Origin: Pseudomonadota bacterium
GTDB taxonomy: Bacteria > Pseudomonadota > Alphaproteobacteria > G022571365
DNA: 64,000 bases
Direction of reading: 5' to 3'
Assembly (NCBI GenBank): GCA_022571365.1
Contig: JACZXZ010000001.1
Coordinates: 38,720-102,719, forward strand
The notes beneath the pieces are model-generated. The model was not told where the DNA came from, searched no databases, and saw nothing but the letters and a program-made list of their open reading frames with translations. Numbering within the stretch: the stretch's first letter is position 1; each line of letters starts with the position of its first letter. A program made the translations under genes and the position numbers. Below are positions 14,222 through 22,487 of the stretch, piece by piece.

Positions 14222-14956
14222 TCAAACCTCTAGCAGCCGCCAGCCGTCTCCTCCGAGTGCCTGAAGCGGCTGGAAGCGGACCTTGTAGGCCATCTTGGGA
14301 CTGGCTTGGATCCAGTAGCCGAGATAGACGAACGAGAGGCCCTCGGCCTGCGCCTGCCGGATCAGCTGTAGCACCGTGAACGTCCCGAGGCTGCGTTTCG
14401 TCACGGCCGGGTCGAAGCAGCTGTAGACTGCCGAAAGGCTATCCGGCAGCCGGTCGTTGAGAGAGGTGGCGACCAGCTCGCCCAAGGGGCTGCGGAATTC
14501 GGTGATGAAGGTGTCGACCGGGCTGTCCTCGACCATGGCCTGATAGTCGGCGAAGCTCATCGCCGACATTCCACCGCCGTTGTGGCGCGACCGCTGGTAG
14601 CGCGCGAACAGCCGGTATTGTTCCGCCGTCGCTCGGGCCGCCAGCTCGCGGACCGCGAGGTCGGCATTGGCGTTCAAGACCCGGCGCAGGGATCGGCTCG
14701 GGGCGAACTCCCGGACCACGACCCGGACCGGCACGCAGGCGCGGCAGCTCGGACAGAGCGGCCGGTAGACGATGTGGTGGCTGCGGCGAAAGCCGGCCTG
14801 GGACAAGGCGTCGTAGACTTGAGCGGACTCGGGGCCGGTGAGATCGGTGAAGATGTCCCGCTCGACACGGTCGGCCAAATAGGGGCAGCGCCTGGGCGCC
14901 GTGCGGTAGAACCGGCGCGGTATTTTTGCGGTTTGTGGGCTTGAGGAGGACAACAT
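14222..14956 (-). CDS. aminoacyl-tRNA-protein transferase (ATE1-like/Bpt)
   Basis: CPYLADRVER, GFRRSH, CPSCRAC, LSAVYS, YLGYWI, KMAYK. Confidence 0.92.
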   Translation of the reverse strand: MLSSSSPQTAKIPRRFYRTAPRRCPYLADRVERDIFTDLTGPESAQVYDALSQAGFRRSHHIVYRPLCPSCRACVPVRVVVREFAPSRSLRRVLNANADLAVRELAARATAEQYRLFARYQRSRHNGGGMSAMSFADYQAMVEDSPVDTFITEFRSPLGELVATSLNDRLPDSLSAVYSCFDPAVTKRSLGTFTVLQLIRQAQAEGLSFVYLGYWIQASPKMAYKVRFQPLQALGGDGWRLLEV

Positions 14957-15037
14957 CGCCTTCGCCCTTGAAATCCCTGGAGGTGGCCGGCGGCAAGTCA
15001 TGCCTGACTGTCTCGGAATCGGTGCCGGCCGCCTGTC

Positions 15038-15069
15038 ATTTCCGGTCAAGGAAATTTCCGGTCAAGGAA
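15038..15069. repeat. perfect 16-bp tandem duplication
   Basis: atttccggtcaaggaa x2. Confidence 0.9.
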
Positions 15070-15267: not shown

Positions 15268-17091
15268 TCACCGTCGCCGCCGCTTGAGCACGTACATGCG
15301 CATCAGGCCATAGCCCTTGGCGGCGGGCATGTGGCCGACGTACTCGCAGGTGAGCGACGCATCGCCGTCCAGCGCCAGGCCTGCCGCGAACGGCTCGGTG
15401 ACGTAGACGTTGCCTTCGGGCGTGGCGGGCTCGAGGCGCGCCGTGCGGGTGACGTGGCTGCCGAAGTAACCCGAATCCTTGACCACGTAGTCATAGCCCT
15501 CGAACACCGGTCCGACATGGGCGCCGACGCGCAGCGCCAGATGCGCCGGCAGGCCGAGCGCCTTCAGGTCGATAACCCCCATCGCCGCTTGCAGATCGAG
15601 CGCCAACTGCGCCGCGACCGGCGCGTCGCTGGCCACCACGAACAGCCCGTCGCCCCAGGTATTGCGGTACAGGACGTCCGAGCCATAGCGGTCGAGAACC
15701 GCGCCCAGGCTGCCCATCACCTCCTTGTGAAACACCGGAAGCTGAGGTTCGCGCAGTTTGCTGAATCCTTTGAAGTCGCTGAACAGCATCGCGCGGATCG
15801 CTCGCTCGTGCTCGGAAAAGCCGGGCGATGCCACCGGTTGTCGCACGGTCCGACGGACGGCCCTCACGGCCGCTGCGGTGGGGGCTGCCACGTCGATGAC
15901 GTGGGATCTCATGCCGATGCTGCGCCAAAACGCCACGTCGGTCGCGGTACCTCCCTCACCGCCGGCCTCTTTGCCGTCCCAGACGGCCGCCTGTTCGACC
16001 TCCGCGTCGAGGAAGGTGGCGCGGAGCAGCGCGAGTCCCATGGCCAACCGCGCGGCGTAGGTGAACAGCAGGTCGTCGCCCATGTAGCTGTCCTCGGTGG
16101 CGTAAGTGATCGAGGTTGCCTTGGCCAGGCAGTCGTCGAAGCGCCGGCTCCAGCCAGGACCGCCCGGCTTGACCGAGATGCGTTTGAACTCGTCCTTGTC
16201 GAATGGCAGGACCACGTGAAGTTCCGCGCTACTCGACAGCAGCGTTTCGGCGAACAGGATGTCGGCGCCGCAAGCCAGTGAGCCATAGCCAAATCCGACC
16301 GACCCCTCATCCAGATGGGCCGCGATTCGCTGCGCCACCGGGTGCTCTGATTCGGCGGGAAAGCGCCCGGGCGCGCCTGGCGCCGAGATCATGTGCCCCA
16401 GGAAGGTGATGACTCGCGGCGGCGTGAGCGGCGCCAGAATTGCCGGGTCGATGGCTCTCTCCGCACAAATGAGGCGCAGTTGCCGGCGCGTTGTCGCGAG
16501 CGCAGCGTAGTCGCCGCCATGGGCTGCCGCTGCCCGCTCCAGGGCGGCGCCGGCATTGTCCAGGTCATCGAGCAGCAGCGCGGCCTCCGCCTCCGTGGCG
16601 GCCCGGTAGTAGGCCTTTCCAGGATCAGCGAGGCTGGTCCTCGATAAGGCGTCCAGCACCCTGCGGGCGAGATCGGTGGCTCGTGCCGGCTTGCCGGCGA
16701 GCAGCCACATGGTCGCCGCGTTGACGCCCGGGTAATAGTCGCCCGTGCGGTCGAAAACCACCTCGTAGAGGCCGGCGGTAATCACTGCGCGCGATGCCCG
16801 CTCAGCCCCTTCGGCCTCCAGCGCGTAGTCCTTTTCCAGTCGGGCGCCCAGCGCGGAAATGTCCACTTCCGGCCGCCCGGCTAGGCCGTATTCGTCAAAC
16901 CGCGCCCGCGCCTGCTCCGTCGCCCCGCTTCGCGCCAGAGTCCGCACCGCGAGATACCTCAGCCCCAGGTGATCCGGGTGAGCCTCCAGGCCTCTGTTGG
17001 CAAGATCGTAAGCGGTAAGGAAATCGCCCGCGCGCTCGACGCCTTCGACCTTAGCGACCCACTCTTCGGCGGAGAACGTCTGCTCAAGCAT
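15268..17091 (-). CDS. TPR (TPR-S/DUF4071-like) + SLOG-like + class III nucleotide cyclase protein
   Basis: N-terminal helical repeats with DYYPGVNAAT and YYRAATEAEA; middle FLGHMI..GYGSLACGADILFAE..HVVLPF; C-terminal MLFSDFKGFS, NTWGDG, LRVGAHVGPV, HVTRTARLEP. Confidence 0.8.
   Translation of the reverse strand: MLEQTFSAEEWVAKVEGVERAGDFLTAYDLANRGLEAHPDHLGLRYLAVRTLARSGATEQARARFDEYGLAGRPEVDISALGARLEKDYALEAEGAERASRAVITAGLYEVVFDRTGDYYPGVNAATMWLLAGKPARATDLARRVLDALSRTSLADPGKAYYRAATEAEAALLLDDLDNAGAALERAAAAHGGDYAALATTRRQLRLICAERAIDPAILAPLTPPRVITFLGHMISAPGAPGRFPAESEHPVAQRIAAHLDEGSVGFGYGSLACGADILFAETLLSSSAELHVVLPFDKDEFKRISVKPGGPGWSRRFDDCLAKATSITYATEDSYMGDDLLFTYAARLAMGLALLRATFLDAEVEQAAVWDGKEAGGEGGTATDVAFWRSIGMRSHVIDVAAPTAAAVRAVRRTVRQPVASPGFSEHERAIRAMLFSDFKGFSKLREPQLPVFHKEVMGSLGAVLDRYGSDVLYRNTWGDGLFVVASDAPVAAQLALDLQAAMGVIDLKALGLPAHLALRVGAHVGPVFEGYDYVVKDSGYFGSHVTRTARLEPATPEGNVYVTEPFAAGLALDGDASLTCEYVGHMPAAKGYGLMRMYVLKRRRR
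15567..15603 (+). repeat. 37-bp direct repeat, copy 1 (inside the cyclase domain)
   Basis: 35/37 identical to 20212-20248. Confidence 0.9.
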
Positions 17092-17392
17092 GGATGGCTC
17101 CTGTGGGCGGCTGACCGAAGCCGCCGCAACATCGCCTCAAGGCAGGGATCATAGCGCGGGCATCGGCTGGCGCAATCGGCCGTGGCGCGCCGGTGTTTTC
17201 GAACCCCGCGACGGAGTCGTTACACACCTATGCTGCCGGCTTGGCCGGTGCCTTGAAGCGAGGGGCGGGTCCCCTCAGACGAGCCTACGCGCAGCCCGCT
17301 GCCGATCCGGCTCGTCGATGACGACTTGAGGCGTGTCATGTCGGGCCTCGCGTTGTAGGCTTGTCGGCGTCCATTTTTAAGGGGGATCAGTC

Positions 17393-18091
17393 ATGCGCCG
17401 TCGGTCCGCCGCCCTGTTCGTGCCTGTGCTGCTTCTATGGCCAACCGCTGACTTCGGCCCCTCCGACATGTTGACCGTCCCGGCAATCCTTGCGGCGGAA
17501 ACATGCACCGGGTTTGCCTGTCCTGAGCTTGCGGGTCACGTGTGGCAGGTGCCTTCTGGGATCGGCAGCGAAGAGGAAAGCAGTGACAGCATCGATGCCG
17601 ACGGGGACGGGGTTCCCGACGATCGGGACCAATGCGTTGGGGCGATTCCCGGAGCGAGCGGCGCGGATGCGACCGGGTGCCCGACGGATTTTGACCCTTA
17701 TGCCAAACTGAGTTTTCAAGACGACAAGCAGAGACGTTGGTACCGGCGGTTCTGGACGGGCGATTGCGACAACCTCAGCTTCTTCACCTGCCTGCCGGGC
17801 AGGCCGTACTGGTACGATGTCCTCAAGCGGGCCCTGGCCAATGTGCCGGCGGGTGATTTGGGCCGCCTGACGAACCGGCTGTGGTCCCTGGGCCGCCTGA
17901 TCGGCTATGAATGGGCCAAGGAAAACGATATCCGCAGGATAGACACGGACGATCTGCAAGTCTGGAGCGGGGCCTTGACCACTGCCAGCGACCTGGACAG
18001 GACCATCGACCGGATCAAAGCGGAGGCGATGGAGAAGTTGAGCGCCCCGACCGGGATCGGCGGCGCGGATGGTAACCTCGACCAGAGTTAG
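17393..18091 (+). CDS. secreted hypothetical protein with a thrombospondin type-3-like Ca-binding repeat
   Basis: Signal-like N-terminus; DADGDGVPDDRDQC..DATGCP resembles the OprF/OmpA Cys linker; GGGGGA RBS. Confidence 0.75.
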   Translation: MRRRSAALFVPVLLLWPTADFGPSDMLTVPAILAAETCTGFACPELAGHVWQVPSGIGSEEESSDSIDADGDGVPDDRDQCVGAIPGASGADATGCPTDFDPYAKLSFQDDKQRRWYRRFWTGDCDNLSFFTCLPGRPYWYDVLKRALANVPAGDLGRLTNRLWSLGRLIGYEWAKENDIRRIDTDDLQVWSGALTTASDLDRTIDRIKAEAMEKLSAPTGIGGADGNLDQS

Positions 18092-18259
18092 CTGACGTGA
18101 CTGGGAAAGCGAGATAGGGCGCACTCGCCCCGGCCGCTTTCACCTCAAGCGGGAGCGAACATGAAACCGTGGCGTCGCAAGCATCGGGTGTCGAATCGAG
18201 TGGCGCCGGGGGACGCCGAGCATCCGCGCGGTCCATGAGCTTTGAAACAAGAGCTGCGC

Positions 18260-20086
18260 CTAGCGCGTTTGAAACAGCTTGGTTAGCGCGAGGATGATCA
18301 TGACGGCGATGAACAGAAGGCCGAGCCGGTAAAAGATAAGGCAGCCGAATGCGAATATCAGAAAAGCGATAAGGTGATTGAGGCGCGGCCATTTCATCGG
18401 CCAGAAATCCATGTCGTCCAGACGATCCAGGCATTCTTCTCTGGAAAGTTTCGTCAGATGGGAAATGTCCGCCCCCTCGCTTTCCAGGTAGGACCGCAGT
18501 TCGTTTCGGCTTTGCCGGGCGGCGAAGTTGAGAACGTAGACGGGCCCGAACAAAACCATCAGGGCCAGAACAAAACCAAGGAAAATGGCCATCGCACTGG
18601 TGAAATTACCGGCGCCGCCGACTGTAAACAGGGTCGCCGCCAGCCGGGACAGGCCCGGCCAAGACACGCCTGCGGCGAAGAGGAAATCGAAGGCGGCTTT
18701 GATTTCGCCAAAAGAGAACTCGAGAATATCCGGTGCGTCGGTTCGCAAGTACAGATTTTGAATATGCATCATGTAGAAAATGAAAAATACGATCATGGAT
18801 ACGTAGGAAGAATTCTTGAAAAATAGCTGAAAGGCCTGAAATCCACGTCGAGTGTCGTTCGAATTCACGTCTGGAATCAGACGAACAACTTTGCTTTGTC
18901 TTGCATATCTATAGATCATGTTCGAGAGCGCAAAGAGGAAGGCGTAGAAACTCAGAATTATCGCAAGGCTCATCCCCTGGGCCAGGTAGGCAGCCAGACT
19001 GAATAAGGCGTTCGCGGTGGGTGACACCTCTCTGCCGGGGGCGGTGAGCAACGCCGCGACTGACCAGTCCATTTCGTCGAAACCAGGTGGAAACGCGCCG
19101 TCCATAAGCGGGCCGCCGGTCATGAAGTACCATTCGGTCATGCACTGCGCGAATGAGATGAGAGACAACAGCAGCGCCCATTTGGCGCTGTTGTTCACGA
19201 CGTTCCGCCAATCCCGAAAGATCGTCTCTTCGCTGACCGGCCGCCACTGCTGGCCAACCACCATATTGTGGCGGACGAGCTGGTGCAGCACGGTCTCCAC
19301 GTTTTGAAAGGTGACCAGCATCAAGAAGATGATGGCGGGAAACGCCGCGACATAGGTCACTGACCAATTGATCGCCCAGACAAAACCTATCTCCTTGCGG
19401 AAAGGGCTGCCGTCATCGGCGGTCAGCTCAGCCGGATAGAATGCGACGCCAACCAGGAAGCTTGCCACGACAAGGAGGAAGCCAAGCAGGATCGCACCGA
19501 AAAAAACGAACTGGGGCGAAACCTCCTGAGCTCGCCAGACCAGCTTCGCGATCTTGCTGGCCGCCTTGGCAATGGGCCGCTCCGTGGCAATGCGGTCGGC
19601 TTCGGCGATTTCCTGCTGGAAGCGGTCTTCCGCCTGAGGCTGGGATTCCTTGGGCGGCGCGTCTCGCTCGACCTCAGCTTCAGCCTTCCCCGAGGGACGG
19701 CTTATGATCCTTTCGACCGTCGCCAGGAATCGCAGGAATTCGGGATGGTGCAGGTTCTCGTGCCAGTCGGCCAGGCGCGCCGCCTGTATCGGCCTGAAGG
19801 CGAGGGGAATTGGGATGTCGTCGATGAGAACCGGGACGAGGATGTCCCGGTTTGCGGCTTCATTTGCTTCCGCCTTTATCCAGCGTGAGGTCACCGAGTA
19901 CTTGGACCATACAACGATGACGCAACTTGCGGCGTTCAATGCCGCCTCGATAACCTCGTCGTACGATTTGCCGGGGGGAATTTCCTTGTCCCACCAGACG
20001 GACCAACCGTTCTGTTCGAGGGCTTCCACGAGTACCTGCACCCGCGGCTGGTCCTGGCTGGCGTAGCTGATAAAGATGTCGCTCAT
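18260..20086 (-). CDS. TIR domain fused to a multipass membrane domain
   Basis: DIFISYA, WSVWWD, VIVVWS, WIKAEA (catalytic Glu position); about 8 hydrophobic segments C-terminally; AT-richer sequence. Confidence 0.88.
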   Translation of the reverse strand: MSDIFISYASQDQPRVQVLVEALEQNGWSVWWDKEIPPGKSYDEVIEAALNAASCVIVVWSKYSVTSRWIKAEANEAANRDILVPVLIDDIPIPLAFRPIQAARLADWHENLHHPEFLRFLATVERIISRPSGKAEAEVERDAPPKESQPQAEDRFQQEIAEADRIATERPIAKAASKIAKLVWRAQEVSPQFVFFGAILLGFLLVVASFLVGVAFYPAELTADDGSPFRKEIGFVWAINWSVTYVAAFPAIIFLMLVTFQNVETVLHQLVRHNMVVGQQWRPVSEETIFRDWRNVVNNSAKWALLLSLISFAQCMTEWYFMTGGPLMDGAFPPGFDEMDWSVAALLTAPGREVSPTANALFSLAAYLAQGMSLAIILSFYAFLFALSNMIYRYARQSKVVRLIPDVNSNDTRRGFQAFQLFFKNSSYVSMIVFFIFYMMHIQNLYLRTDAPDILEFSFGEIKAAFDFLFAAGVSWPGLSRLAATLFTVGGAGNFTSAMAIFLGFVLALMVLFGPVYVLNFAARQSRNELRSYLESEGADISHLTKLSREECLDRLDDMDFWPMKWPRLNHLIAFLIFAFGCLIFYRLGLLFIAVMIILALTKLFQTR

Positions 20087-20211
20087 ATGCCTTCGTGGCC
20101 TGATCGACGAGCCGCGAGGCTTGGCGTGCCGGATTTGCGGCCGCCGCTCGAAAGCGCGGATCAGGGATAGTCAGACTTTCTCTTTACTCTGTCGAGGGTT
20201 TGATTCCCACG

Positions 20212-20248
20212 GGTTGATGACCCCCATCGCCGCTTGCAGATCGAGCGC
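20212..20248 (+). repeat. 37-bp direct repeat, copy 2 (intergenic, upstream of the TIR gene)
   Basis: ggttgatgacccccatcgccgcttgcagatcgagcgc; 29-bp exact core shared with 15575-15603. Confidence 0.9.
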
Positions 20249-20320: not shown

Positions 20321-21292
20321 TCACGCCACGCGGTCGGGCGGCTCCTTGCCTTCGAAGAAGGCCTTGACGTTTTCCAGAACGCGGAAGCCCATGGCCTCCC
20401 GCGTTTCCTTGGAGGCGCTCCCCAGGTGGGGCAGCAGGACCACGTTCTCTATCTCAATGAGATTCTTACTCGCCTCGGGCTCGTGCTCGTAGACGTCGAG
20501 CCCGGCGCCGGCGATCACCCCCTCTTTCAGGGCGGCCGCGAGCGCGGCTTCGTCAACCACGTTGCCGCGGGAGGTGTTGATGAGAAACGCGGACGGCTTC
20601 ATGAGTTTGAGGCGCTGGCTGTTGATGAGATGTCGCGTCTCGGCCGTGGCGGGGCAGTGGAGCGACACGAAGTCCGCTTCCCGCAAGACATCTTCGAGCG
20701 AATCCCGTGGCTCACCGCCCACGGCCTTGGCCTCCTCATGGGAAGACAGATAGGGGTCGTAATAGATGATCTTCATGCCGAAACCGTGATGGGCGCGTTT
20801 GGCGATGGCCTTGGCAATCCGGCCCATGCCGATGATGCCAAGGGTCTTGCCGGAGATTTTGGCCCCCAGCATGTGGGTTGGCCGCCACCCGGTCCATTCG
20901 CCGTTGCGCAAGTGCCGTTCGCCTTCCCCGGTGCGGCGCGCCACCATGAGGAGAAGCGTCATGGCGATGTCGGCGGTGCACTCGGTCAGCACCTCGGGCG
21001 TGTTGGTCACCACAAGGCCGTGCCGCTTGGCGGCCTCGCAGTCGATGTTGTCGAAACCGACCCCGAAGTTGCCAAGGATTTTCACGCGCTTGGGCTCGAC
21101 GCTCAAAATTTCCGCCGTGATCTTGTCGGTCACGGTGCAGAGAAGACCATCGGCCGACTGCAGGGCCTCCTGAAGTTCGACCGCGCTCATCGGGCGGTCC
21201 TCCGCGTTGAGCCGGGCGTCGAACAGCTCACCGAGCTGCTGTTCCACGGCCTCGGGCCATCTGCGGGTAACAAGGACTTTCGGCTTGGCCAT
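20321..21292 (-). CDS. D-glycerate dehydrogenase / glyoxylate-hydroxypyruvate reductase
   Basis: NTPEVLTECTAD, GIIGMGRI, INTSRG, LDVYEHEP, PHLGSA. Confidence 0.9.
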   Translation of the reverse strand: MAKPKVLVTRRWPEAVEQQLGELFDARLNAEDRPMSAVELQEALQSADGLLCTVTDKITAEILSVEPKRVKILGNFGVGFDNIDCEAAKRHGLVVTNTPEVLTECTADIAMTLLLMVARRTGEGERHLRNGEWTGWRPTHMLGAKISGKTLGIIGMGRIAKAIAKRAHHGFGMKIIYYDPYLSSHEEAKAVGGEPRDSLEDVLREADFVSLHCPATAETRHLINSQRLKLMKPSAFLINTSRGNVVDEAALAAALKEGVIAGAGLDVYEHEPEASKNLIEIENVVLLPHLGSASKETREAMGFRVLENVKAFFEGKEPPDRVA

Positions 21293-21302
21293 ATCTTCGC
21301 CG

Positions 21303-22487
21303 TTAAGCTGGATTCGCGCGCCAATACTCGCAGGCAGCGCCGACGCCGCTGCCCGGCTCGACGTCGACGCCGACATCGCGCATGGCCATCTCGACCCCGG
21401 CGATGGCGCTGCAGAGCATCAGCTCATTGAGGTCGCCCAGATGCCCGATGCGGAAAAGCTTGCCGGCGACCTCGGCCAGTCCCGCGCCGAGCGCCAGGTT
21501 GTACTTCTTGAAGGCGGTGGCGATCACCTCCGCGCCGTTGGTGCCTTCCGGCACCATGATTGCGGTTACGGTGTCCGATTCCCACTTCGACTCCTTGGCG
21601 CAGAGCTTGAGCCCCCAGCCCTTCTTCGCCGCCTGGCGAACACCCTCGGCCAGCCGGTAGTGGCGCTTGAAGACGTTCTCGAGGCCCTCCTCGAAGAGGA
21701 TGTTGAGCGCTTCGCGCAGGCCGCGAAGCAGCGGCATCGAAGGGGTGTAGGGGAAGAAGCCGTCCTTGTTGGTTTTGAGCATGTCTTCGAAGGAAAAGTA
21801 GACGCGCTTCAACCCCGCTGTCTTATGCGCCTCAAGCGCCTTCGGGCCGGCGCAGACGATACCGAGGCCGCAGGGCAGCATAAGGCCCTTCTGGGAGCCG
21901 CAGATCGCTACGTCCACGCCCCATTCGTCCATACGGAAGTCGACGCTGGCGATGGAGCTGATGCCGTCGATGTAGTAAAGCGCTGGATGGTTGGCGTCAT
22001 CGATGGCCTTGCGCACGGCGGCGATGTCGCTGGTCACCCCCGTCGTGGTTTCGTTGTGCACGACCATCACGCCCTTGATCTCGTGGCCGCTGTCGGCCGC
22101 GAGGATCTCGCCGATCTTGTCCGGCGGGGCACCCTCACCCCACTCGCACTCGATCACCCGGACGTCGAGACCCAGGCGCTCCATCATGTCGATCCACAGA
22201 TGGCTGAATATGCCGAAGCGGCAGGTGAGGACCTTGTCGCCGGGCGAAAGGGTATTGGAGAGCGCCGCTTCCCAGGCGCCGGTGCCCGACGACGGGTAGA
22301 TGAAGACGATCCCTTCCTTGGTCCTGAGGACCTTCTTCATATCCTCGTATAGGGGAAGGGTGAAGTCGGGAATCTCGAGATTGCGCTGATCCTCCTGCTG
22401 GATGCGCATGGCGTTCAGGATACGGTCCGGGATGTTGGTCGGACCGGGAATGAAGAGAGAATGATAACCAGTGTGCGCGCGCGCCAT
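21303..22487 (-). CDS. sgaA: serine-glyoxylate aminotransferase (class V PLP)
   Basis: LFIPGPTNIPDR, HNETTTGV, GSQKGLMLP, FRIGHLGDLNEL; close recalled similarity to methylotroph SgaA. Confidence 0.8.
   Translation of the reverse strand: MARAHTGYHSLFIPGPTNIPDRILNAMRIQQEDQRNLEIPDFTLPLYEDMKKVLRTKEGIVFIYPSSGTGAWEAALSNTLSPGDKVLTCRFGIFSHLWIDMMERLGLDVRVIECEWGEGAPPDKIGEILAADSGHEIKGVMVVHNETTTGVTSDIAAVRKAIDDANHPALYYIDGISSIASVDFRMDEWGVDVAICGSQKGLMLPCGLGIVCAGPKALEAHKTAGLKRVYFSFEDMLKTNKDGFFPYTPSMPLLRGLREALNILFEEGLENVFKRHYRLAEGVRQAAKKGWGLKLCAKESKWESDTVTAIMVPEGTNGAEVIATAFKKYNLALGAGLAEVAGKLFRIGHLGDLNELMLCSAIAGVEMAMRDVGVDVEPGSGVGAACEYWRANPA

Follow-up and report, generated by a model that had tools for sequence, protein, structure and literature searches.

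We argue here that two genes in one stretch of bacterial DNA form a Thoeris-type nucleotide-signaling pair, a conclusion that we hold with moderate confidence. The stretch is 64,000 nucleotides long (hereafter, the window) and comes from a member of the Pseudomonadota (GenBank assembly GCA_022571365.1, contig JACZXZ010000001.1, positions 38,720–102,719 of the forward strand). One of the genes, C, encodes a Toll/interleukin-1 receptor (TIR) domain carried on a multipass membrane protein; the other, A, encodes a fusion of TPR-S, SLOG, and class III nucleotide cyclase domains. In the pathway that we favor, the TIR protein would signal to A, and A would signal, in turn, to proteins that read cyclic mononucleotides (cNMPs). 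Three kinds of observation carry the argument—the identities of the domains, the conservation of catalytic residues, and gene neighborhoods that recur from genome to genome—and judging by these neighborhoods, A and C are very probably linked in function.

The window belongs to a 2.3-Mb genome in 116 contigs that is 93% complete and whose nearest relatives in our genome collection share its class only. Between ate on one side and a gyaR/sgaA pair on the other lie three open reading frames (ORFs): A (607 amino acids; positions 15268–17091, minus strand), B (a small secreted protein of 232 amino acids; 17393–18091, plus strand), and C (608 amino acids; 18260–20086, minus strand). A preliminary description of this DNA had placed three ORFs here and proposed that all of them belong to one signaling or defense islet; an ORF check found all three.

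Results

What kind of protein does gene A encode? Its N-terminal part matches TPR-S in Pfam (PF20308, residues 27–128, E = 1.7e-6), and the score of 29.0 bits exceeds the gathering cut-off of 27.6 bits, which makes A a member of the family. Homologs of A score higher (for example, 47.5 bits in locus L015), and PF20308 is annotated on the listed homologs as well. A generic TPR_19 match and a subthreshold MAP3K_TRAF_bd match accompany it, and the C-terminal part matches Guanylate_cyc (PF00211, residues 434–603, E = 5e-9). No NCBIfam or PADLOC model matches A. An AlphaFold2 model with 36 homologs in its alignment (predicted local distance difference test, pLDDT, 91.1; predicted template modeling score, pTM, 0.90) lays out an all-helical region at residues 8–222, an alpha/beta domain at 226–414, a low-confidence linker at 414–426, and the cyclase at 430–604; on the minus strand of the window, the three domains occupy positions 16426–17070, 15850–16416, and 15280–15804, respectively. 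The helical TPR-S repeat region is the predicted ligand sensor. It bears a weak similarity to the TPR region of ASK1/MAP3K5 (5ulm, E = 0.01 in a profile search of the PDB; PF13281, E = 0.009), but ASK1 is a eukaryotic kinase scaffold, and the likeness is marginal and does not reach the cut-off of the family.

The middle domain does not show itself to searches with the whole protein: Foldseek with the full model returned cyclases only, and a sequence profile search of the PDB returned nothing for this region. The domain was therefore folded alone from an alignment of 41 sequences (pLDDT 87.5) and put through an exhaustive structural comparison (VIA-align). B. subtilis YpsA (2nx2) came out on top, with Z = 18.8 and a root-mean-square deviation of 2.2 Å over 160 residues, followed by DprA (Z = 13.1), ShosA (11.9), LOG (10.6), TRPM2 (MHR; 9.7), and the Moco carrier protein (9.6), and down to a Z of about 9.6, the matches are SLOG members only. 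The SLOG domain of ThsA (7uxs) scored 6.8 and the nucleoside deoxyribosyltransferase fold (1f8x) 6.0; Foldseek with the domain alone found YpsA at E = 3e-5. Because the top structural matches all belong to the SLOG superfamily, the model identifies this domain as a SLOG fold nearest to the YpsA clade. The preliminary description had called it SLOG-like, within a TPR/SLOG-like/class III cyclase fusion, and had named a structure search as the check; both the domain and the fusion stood up to it.

With the Rossmann-like SLOG fold comes the GxD/E signature of the YpsA clade. Across 36 A sequences, G275 is invariant and D277 is conserved in at least 90%, and in the 41-sequence alignment of the domain, the glycine (G64) and aspartate (D66) are both invariant. 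By position, G275 and D277 would correspond to G53 and E55 of YpsA. In the accessible portion of PMC6459960, the GxD/E motif of this clade is predicted to be a substrate-binding site, and a link to nicotinamide adenine dinucleotide (NAD) or ADP-ribose is suggested.

The C-terminal domain is a class III cyclase according to Pfam and Foldseek (4ni2_B at E = 4.6e-8, plus many other cyclases), and its catalytic residues mostly agree. The metal-binding aspartates (D439 and D481) and two arginines (R521 and R552) are invariant and align with the motifs of PDB cyclases in hidden Markov model alignments, so that the metal ligands and the phosphate and transition-state arginines of the class are in place. 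The transition-state asparagine and the canonical specificity pair are absent: Ser or Thr takes the place of the former, and a nearly invariant N477 occupies the Lys/Glu position that specifies the purine. (We take the canonical residues to be an Asn for the transition state and, for specificity, Lys/Asp in adenylate cyclases or Glu/Cys in guanylate cyclases.) By these residues, the cyclase looks catalytically competent.

The family of A is large, with 1375 proteins at E ≤ 1e-3 among 8000 candidates scored. Its best 120 homologs (setting aside the query's own cluster and one protein at 92%) are 52–60% identical to A over almost the full length. Within the class of the window's genome, homologs are spread patchily over 30 of 401 genomes (E ≤ 1e-20). 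The gene is chromosomal; PLSDB yields only two plasmid matches, and both are limited to the cyclase domain.

Gene C begins with its TIR domain (residues 4–130; window positions 19697–20077, minus strand), which TIR_2 matches at residues 4–109 with E = 4.3e-25. The domain carries W69-x3-E73, and E73, the catalytic glutamate, does not vary among the TIR-membrane fusions that we aligned (11 of 11). Hydropathy gives C at least five strongly hydrophobic segments, and the TIR domain with an intact WxxxE motif on a multipass membrane body that had been described from this DNA is indeed what the gene encodes.

The membrane body (residues 178–602; 18281–19555, minus strand) reads, by sequence comparison, as a distant relative of RcgA. 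It matches the NCBIfam model for RcgA (NF047336) at E = 4.1e-13, with 48.7 bits against a membership cut-off of 325 bits that it does not reach. A PF28285 label, which is a precomputed annotation, came with the protein search for C, and the Atlas cluster nearest to C has RcgA in 20% of its members. RcgA itself, in what is accessible of the papers about it (PMC9601222; PMC13055273), is a six-transmembrane protein that is essential for conjugative transfer of the rhizobial plasmid pLPU83a. Unlike C, it is a stand-alone protein, with no TIR domain.

How unusual, then, is a body of this kind joined to a TIR domain? An exhaustive HMMER search with residues 141–608 of C found 397 representative proteins at E ≤ 1e-3, most of them stand-alone forms of 420–470 amino acids. 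We scanned 20 of these with Pfam—all 17 that were chosen because they exceed the stand-alone length and three of stand-alone size—and 12 of the 17 long forms carry a TIR domain (10 at the N terminus and two at the C terminus), which rules out the idea that the fusion is unique to the window. The other long forms comprise one class III cyclase fusion, one Ser/Thr kinase fusion, and one EAD1/EAD5 fusion (these three being P0364, P0365, and P0468) as well as two proteins without a Pfam domain. EAD1/EAD5 are adaptor domains of conflict systems. The variety of fusions indicates a module that has repeatedly recruited signaling enzymes, and it suggests that the RcgA-like body serves signaling and conflict proteins in general as an input or an anchor at the membrane.

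In the genome collections, bodies of this type are rare. They occur in two of 401 class genomes (the window's own and G254, where the body is unfused) and in three of 400 other genomes of the phylum (none about 600 amino acids long), with no TIR fusion outside the window. Searching genome contigs with C returned matches to its TIR domain only, a search of genome contigs with the TIR-RcgA fusion protein P0361 returned none, and a profile scan of metagenome contigs for relatives of the fusion likewise returned none. The only other TIR gene in the window's genome lies at a contig end (C46:328–627, L199; TIR_2, E = 3.8e-11), next to an ORF of 425 amino acids without a Pfam family.

The strongest evidence that A works with a TIR protein comes from the neighborhoods of A in other genomes. 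A pattern and tblastn scan, with one genome per species, gave 523 relatives of A, of which the best 80 were kept together with flanks of as much as 8 kb. Most of the 80 loci are from Actinomycetota (Solirubrobacterales and Acidimicrobiia), with others from Arenimonas, further Pseudomonadota, Binataceae, and Acidobacteriota. When stop-to-stop ORFs of at least 70 amino acids within 8 kb of A were searched with a profile built from 122 TIR domains, 58 of the 80 loci had a TIR ORF: 47 within 400 bp of A, nine at 400–2000 bp, and two further away. For the 22 remaining loci, flanking ORFs were chosen by a greedy longest-ORF rule (which failed in three loci), and 39 of the 54 were scanned with Pfam, the short ORFs and some second neighbors being left out; this added TIR partners in L037, L080, L090, L094, and L031 (the last with the N terminus scanned alone). 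In total, at least 63 of the 80 loci have a TIR gene by A, and one locus, L074, has an additional weak TIR. The earlier suggestion that the TIR and TPR-SLOG-cyclase genes work together, and that a search for their co-occurrence would tell, thus finds strong support.

The partners are diverse: TIR-WD40 proteins of about 950 amino acids, TIR-only proteins of about 360 amino acids (in Arenimonas), TIR-TPR, TIR-DUF4062, and TIR-nSTAND1-TPR. Their catalytic column is not, with Glu in 63 of the 64 TIR ORFs at these loci. Order and orientation vary as well (same strand upstream or downstream, divergent, or convergent), which points to selection on proximity and not to a shared ancestral operon. Arenimonas oryziterrae DSM 21050 (L028, 6861–9749) has a minimal operon, in which a TIR frame of 372 amino acids and A lie on the same strand with a gap of 4 bp. 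In the class as a whole, TIR genes are rare: the TIR-membrane profile matched 54 of 401 genomes. The window's own genome has two TIR genes and a single A gene, which lies 1.17 kb from one of them. What recurs at these loci is the general Thoeris arrangement: a TIR protein with its catalytic Glu beside an effector with a predicted signal-sensing domain. A predicted complex of A (residues 1–425) with the TIR domain of C (residues 1–135) scored 0.00, which speaks neither for nor against binding.

In two loci (L084 and L087), TIR and DUF4062 stand in tandem in the partner, and it may be that DUF4062 generates a signal much as TIR domains do. A neighbor of A in another locus (L091:9807–11612, plus strand) matches DUF4231 at E = 2e-4, below the cut-off; DUF4231 is, we presume, a SLATT-type membrane effector domain.

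A FastTree phylogeny of 107 A homologs (Shimodaira–Hasegawa-like support, midpoint root, with L163 omitted as a presumed duplicate) divides the family. Twelve members from the window's class (L176–L185, L016, and L017), many of them long forms of 680–750 amino acids, form a separate clade without TIR neighbors; some of their genomes are only 0.9–1.5 Mb, and the clade may represent a branch with housekeeping functions. The remaining 94 rows and one long branch make up the main clade, in which 67 of 94 have a TIR neighbor. The A of the window sits in the main clade beside a Hyphomicrobiales TIR-WD40 locus and an Arenimonas clade in which all loci have TIR, with the branching order among them not resolved. 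The TIR label changes at least 11 times on the tree; in this family, then, partners were repeatedly lost, exchanged for others, or relocated.

A second kind of neighbor speaks to the output of the cyclase. Clustering of the neighbor ORFs by BLAST brought up a group (cluster 3) in which 16 of 21 Pfam-scanned members have a cNMP_binding domain, the remainder being plain major facilitator superfamily (MFS) or ATP-binding cassette (ABC) proteins. Of the 16, 11 are CRP-like (HTH_Crp_2), one is a patatin fusion (L044), two are fused to MFS transporters (L061 and L093), and two are fused to ABC ATPases (L074 and L085). In a profile search, 27 of the 80 A loci had a cNMP-binding ORF within 8 kb—eight within 400 bp, six at 400–2000 bp, and 13 beyond—and several of the distant ones (e.g., L024–L026, L030, L070, and L078) lie just past a TIR gene of 3 kb. 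A TIR gene and a reader occur together in 21 of the 80 loci and a reader alone in six. Within the class, four loci (G050, G223, G078, and G385) encode a cNMP reader no more than about 100 bp away from A.

In the window's genome, matters differ. Its contig holds no cNMP-binding gene, all seven of the genome being on other contigs, and thus, the reader of the product of A, if there is one, is not local. The absence of a cNMP effector had been put forward as a caveat; it holds for this contig but not for the family, as the 27 loci show. Two further class III cyclases are present in the genome, both on other contigs. One of them (C89:14323–16197, a frame of 743 amino acids) has a cNMP-binding protein about 1 kb away, and these two genes (L189 and L196) make up a separate, local cyclase-reader pair.

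For defense context, we drew 18 full-length loci at random and scanned 133 neighbor ORFs from 13 of them with PADLOC, setting aside one ORF that runs antisense to A. All of the matches were generic: the ABC-ATPase-like "mad3," an oxidoreductase, a transporter, a second cyclase that resembles PycC (in L047), and fragments, short ones, of HEAT and CARF type. Taken with the PLSDB result, this indicates that the A–C pair is chromosomal and not obviously housed in defense islands.

Discussion

How might such a pair work? In the pathway that we favor, the RcgA-like body would hold C at the membrane, standing where other TIR partners of A have sensor parts of the WD40, TPR, or STAND type, and an event at the envelope would trigger it. 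The TIR domain would then cleave NAD+ to an ADP-ribose-derived signal. This signal would bind the TPR-S region, the SLOG domain, or both at the N terminus of A and activate the class III cyclase at its C terminus. The resulting cNMP would be read by cNMP-binding proteins, such as CRP-like regulators or patatin or transporter effectors, whose genes neighbor the pair in many other genomes and would lie elsewhere in this one. The direction from TIR to A, both messengers, the trigger, and an anti-phage purpose are what we infer from the domains and their neighborhoods. The N-terminal repeat, which the preliminary description gave simply as TPR, is of the TPR-S type, and according to two preprints that cite Burroughs and Aravind (2020), this TPR had been predicted to act in TIR signaling. 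TPR-S may therefore be the sensor in A, and not SLOG alone.

A more ambitious version of the idea is one that we offer tentatively, rating it a little below an even chance. That is, the genes would form a two-tier relay, running from an ADP-ribose-type TIR signal to the TPR-S-SLOG-cyclase and then through a cNMP to CRP-type, patatin, or transporter readers, as a new Thoeris-like type that turns one immune messenger into another and is present in hundreds of genomes, with the RcgA-like body as a trigger module that possibly reports the passage or damage of DNA at the envelope. The last element is suggested by the need for RcgA in conjugative DNA transfer.

The closest validated relative of the pair, by analogy, appears to be type VIII Thoeris, in which a TIR protein (ThsB) makes a cyclic ADP-ribose (cADPR) signal for ThsI, an effector with TPR and cytidine monophosphate (CMP)-hydrolase domains; the available part of the preprint also says that Aravind and colleagues had predicted the effector TPR to act in TIR signaling (bioRxiv 10.64898/2025.12.03.692087). 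The two systems share a TIR gene paired with a TPR-bearing effector and, if we are right, a small-molecule relay from TIR to enzyme. They differ in the middle domain, which in A is YpsA-like SLOG (Z = 18.8) and not deoxyribosyltransferase- or CMP-hydrolase-like (1f8x, Z = 6.0), a comparison in which ThsI is known by description. They differ, too, in output, which in A is a class III cyclase (and implies a second messenger), and in the membrane anchor of the TIR domain. Type I Thoeris, in which the ThsB TIR protein signals by 3'cADPR to the SIR2-SLOG protein ThsA, likewise joins a TIR to a SLOG-bearing partner, but the SLOG of A is much nearer to YpsA than to ThsA (7uxs, Z = 6.8), A lacks SIR2, and the ThsA model of PADLOC 2.0 does not match A.

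TPR-S proteins have been set beside TIR genes before. A 2023 preprint (bioRxiv 10.1101/2023.05.26.542521) re-analyzed 78 "core Tpr" operons of Burroughs and Aravind (2020) and, in its accessible part, reports TIR, YpsA, patatin, LSDAT (SLOG), and calcineurin neighbors. These TIR/TPR-S assemblies and BcTir/BcTpr resemble our pair, as A has PF20308; unlike our pair, they show neither a cyclase fusion nor cNMP readers in that part of the preprint, and the fusion may already be cataloged in Burroughs and Aravind (2020). Pycsar and Pucsar resemble it in that a single system contains a cyclase of class III type together with a TIR protein and readers of cNMPs. Here, in contrast, the cyclase carries its own sensor-type domains, the TIR proteins scanned have no cNMP-binding domain, and the likely order is TIR and then cyclase; A has no PycC match, and no cNMP-binding effector gene adjoins it. 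The preliminary description had known of no named system with this wiring. That exact system, with a TIR, a TPR-S-SLOG-cyclase, and a cNMP reader, did not turn up in the literature that we searched, but a precedent for such wiring exists in type VIII Thoeris. In short, the A–C pair is a variation on TIR signaling with TPR-S-type effectors, distinguished by its second-messenger cyclase output and its RcgA-like TIR anchor.

Several results weigh against this reading, and they should be taken together. At the locus itself, A and C cannot be one transcript because gene B lies between them on the opposite strand (the caveat, raised early, that the genes form no single operon holds), and C may be a later arrival and not a long co-evolved partner, to judge from its lower GC content at third codon positions (GC3; 0.72 for C, 0.76 for B, 0.81 for A, and 0.82–0.86 for the flanking genes). 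The noncanonical residues at the asparagine and purine-specifying positions make the activity and product of the cyclase uncertain. No TIR-RcgA fusion was found beside an A homolog elsewhere, the fusions being absent from the genome collections searched. Among class genomes, we fetched 8 kb on each side of A for 27 of the 29 besides the window's own (G068 and G157, with partial matches, were left out), and only three of the 27 (G383, G156, and G011) have a TIR neighbor, a scarcity due in part to the separate TIR-less clade. At some TIR-less loci, the gene next to A encodes a large DUF4062-nSTAND1-WD40/TPR protein instead of a TIR partner (L174:3723–7946, E = 1e-5; L168:9545–13765 and L055:3499–8085, both about 1.5e-3), and at 11 of the 80 loci, no TIR gene and no cNMP-binding gene lies nearby. 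Finally, the 133 neighbor ORFs at 13 A loci include no known defense system; PADLOC, which had been named as a check, recognizes neither A nor B and matches C with its ThsB models through the TIR domain only, at E = 1.7e-4 or weaker.

Might the wiring be right and the purpose wrong? A physiological stress or envelope pathway that feeds a CRP-type regulon, with no anti-phage role, is the alternative that survives best, although we think it unlikely. It owes its standing to the predominance of CRP-like readers (the commonest type nearby, at 11 of the 16 typed) and to the lack of a defense-island context: PADLOC, which has no model for A, finds no known system among the neighbors; A is chromosomal, down to the two PLSDB plasmids matched in the cyclase domain only; here, it sits between housekeeping genes; and it is well conserved across phyla, at 52–60% identity over its full length. 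Against it stand the patchy spread of A in its class (30 of 401 genomes) and the freedom with which the TIR partners swap their sensor parts (WD40, TPR, nSTAND1, DUF4062, and membrane body). Patatin and EAD-type associations exist, and a TIR with a TPR-type effector has been shown to be anti-phage in type VIII Thoeris.

It is improbable that A and C are neighbors by chance, with C a self-contained one-gene TIR-membrane module beside an unrelated signaling cyclase. The deviant GC3 of C, the unrelated gene between it and A, the rare TIR adjacency in the class (3 of 27), and the existence of TIR-RcgA fusions as a family of their own would all fit. With two TIR genes and one A gene in 2.3 Mb, though, a spacing of 1.2 kb would arise by chance about once in several hundred, by our estimate, and of the 80 loci examined for the family of A, no fewer than 63 are TIR linked.

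A shade less probable still is the reverse wiring of the Pycsar/Pucsar kind, in which the cyclase of A would sense and its cNMP would activate C as an NAD-depleting or membrane-disrupting effector: pairs of a cyclase with a TIR or transmembrane effector are known, cyclic GMP activates the TIR effector of Pucsar in the accessible text of bioRxiv 10.64898/2026.08.12.744502, and a TIR domain on a membrane body could be an effector architecture, but we rate this reading low because none of the TIR proteins scanned, neither C nor 16 partners, has a cNMP-binding domain, and beyond that, such domains sit on separate regulators and effectors, the cyclase of A lies C-terminal to two ligand-binding-type domains, where an output domain usually stands, the partner TIR proteins have the WD40, TPR, and STAND parts typical of sensors, and the PycC models of PADLOC do not match A.

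Why does the order of events in the favored TIR-to-A pathway matter? In known TIR systems, such as Thoeris, the TIR signal goes straight to an effector that kills or arrests, whereas the conserved partner here has another signal-making enzyme as its output. If the order is truly TIR, then TPR-S/SLOG, then cyclase, and then cNMP reader, this would be a messenger-to-messenger relay in bacteria, with room for amplification, for a response that is transcriptional rather than suicidal, and for cross-talk between NAD-derived and cNMP signals. It would also offer a handle on whether TPR-S or SLOG reads TIR products and on the role of the RcgA-like module. The minimal operon of A. oryziterrae, in a cultured type strain, makes the relay idea directly testable.

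Other Features of the Locus

A 37-bp repeat occurs twice at the locus. One copy (15567–15603) lies within the coding sequence of the cyclase, where it encodes the conserved ALDLQAAMGVID, and the other (20212–20248) falls in the intergenic gap that separates the start codon of the TIR gene from the stop codon of gyaR. The copies are identical at 35 of 37 positions, none of 100 shuffles gave two matches, and the 28-nucleotide core occurs at just these two sites in the 2.3-Mb genome. The repeat had been noticed before as a link between the cyclase and the region upstream of the TIR gene; it is real, and its placement can now be put more exactly: one copy is 126 bp upstream of where the TIR gene starts, and the other is within the part of A that codes for the cyclase domain. 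The flanks of the copies are unrelated, and the likeness ends abruptly on both sides, leaving a sharp-edged patch; by eye, the reading frame around the second copy holds nothing A-like past the 12 residues. Scans of the repeat region for promoters and terminators gave results at chance level. Our guess, and no more than a guess, is that a recombination or rearrangement left the repeat behind as a scar when C arrived.

Gene B probably stands outside the A–C system as a bystander, since no B homolog stands beside A in any of the 80 loci. It had been proposed as a secreted third member, and its ORF does have an N-terminal signal-like segment; the role in the system is what falls away. Pfam, NCBIfam, and PADLOC assign B to no family. 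Its 122 homologs make up a separate family of small proteins of the periplasm. Mostly about 150 amino acids long with a signal-peptide-like N terminus, they share three conserved cysteines and a motif of the WYRRFWTGxC type that is invariant, and B and its four closest relatives have an extra DGDGVPD-type motif. Several of the homologs are annotated as hypothetical proteins from Caulobacter, Phenylobacterium, or Sphingobium.

No tRNA gene lies within 5–30 kb of the locus. Of the flanking genes, ate (14222–15049) has ATE_N and ATE_C domains, and at the start of its listed ORF, there is an exact 16-bp tandem duplication (ATTTCCGGTCAAGGAA, twice, at 15038–15069); the true start of ate is possibly downstream of the listed one. 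On the other side, the gyaR-like dehydrogenase and sgaA-like aminotransferase genes (20321–22487) are on the same strand and, as listed, overlap by 74 bp (21303–21376); the start of gyaR is probably a downstream ATG.

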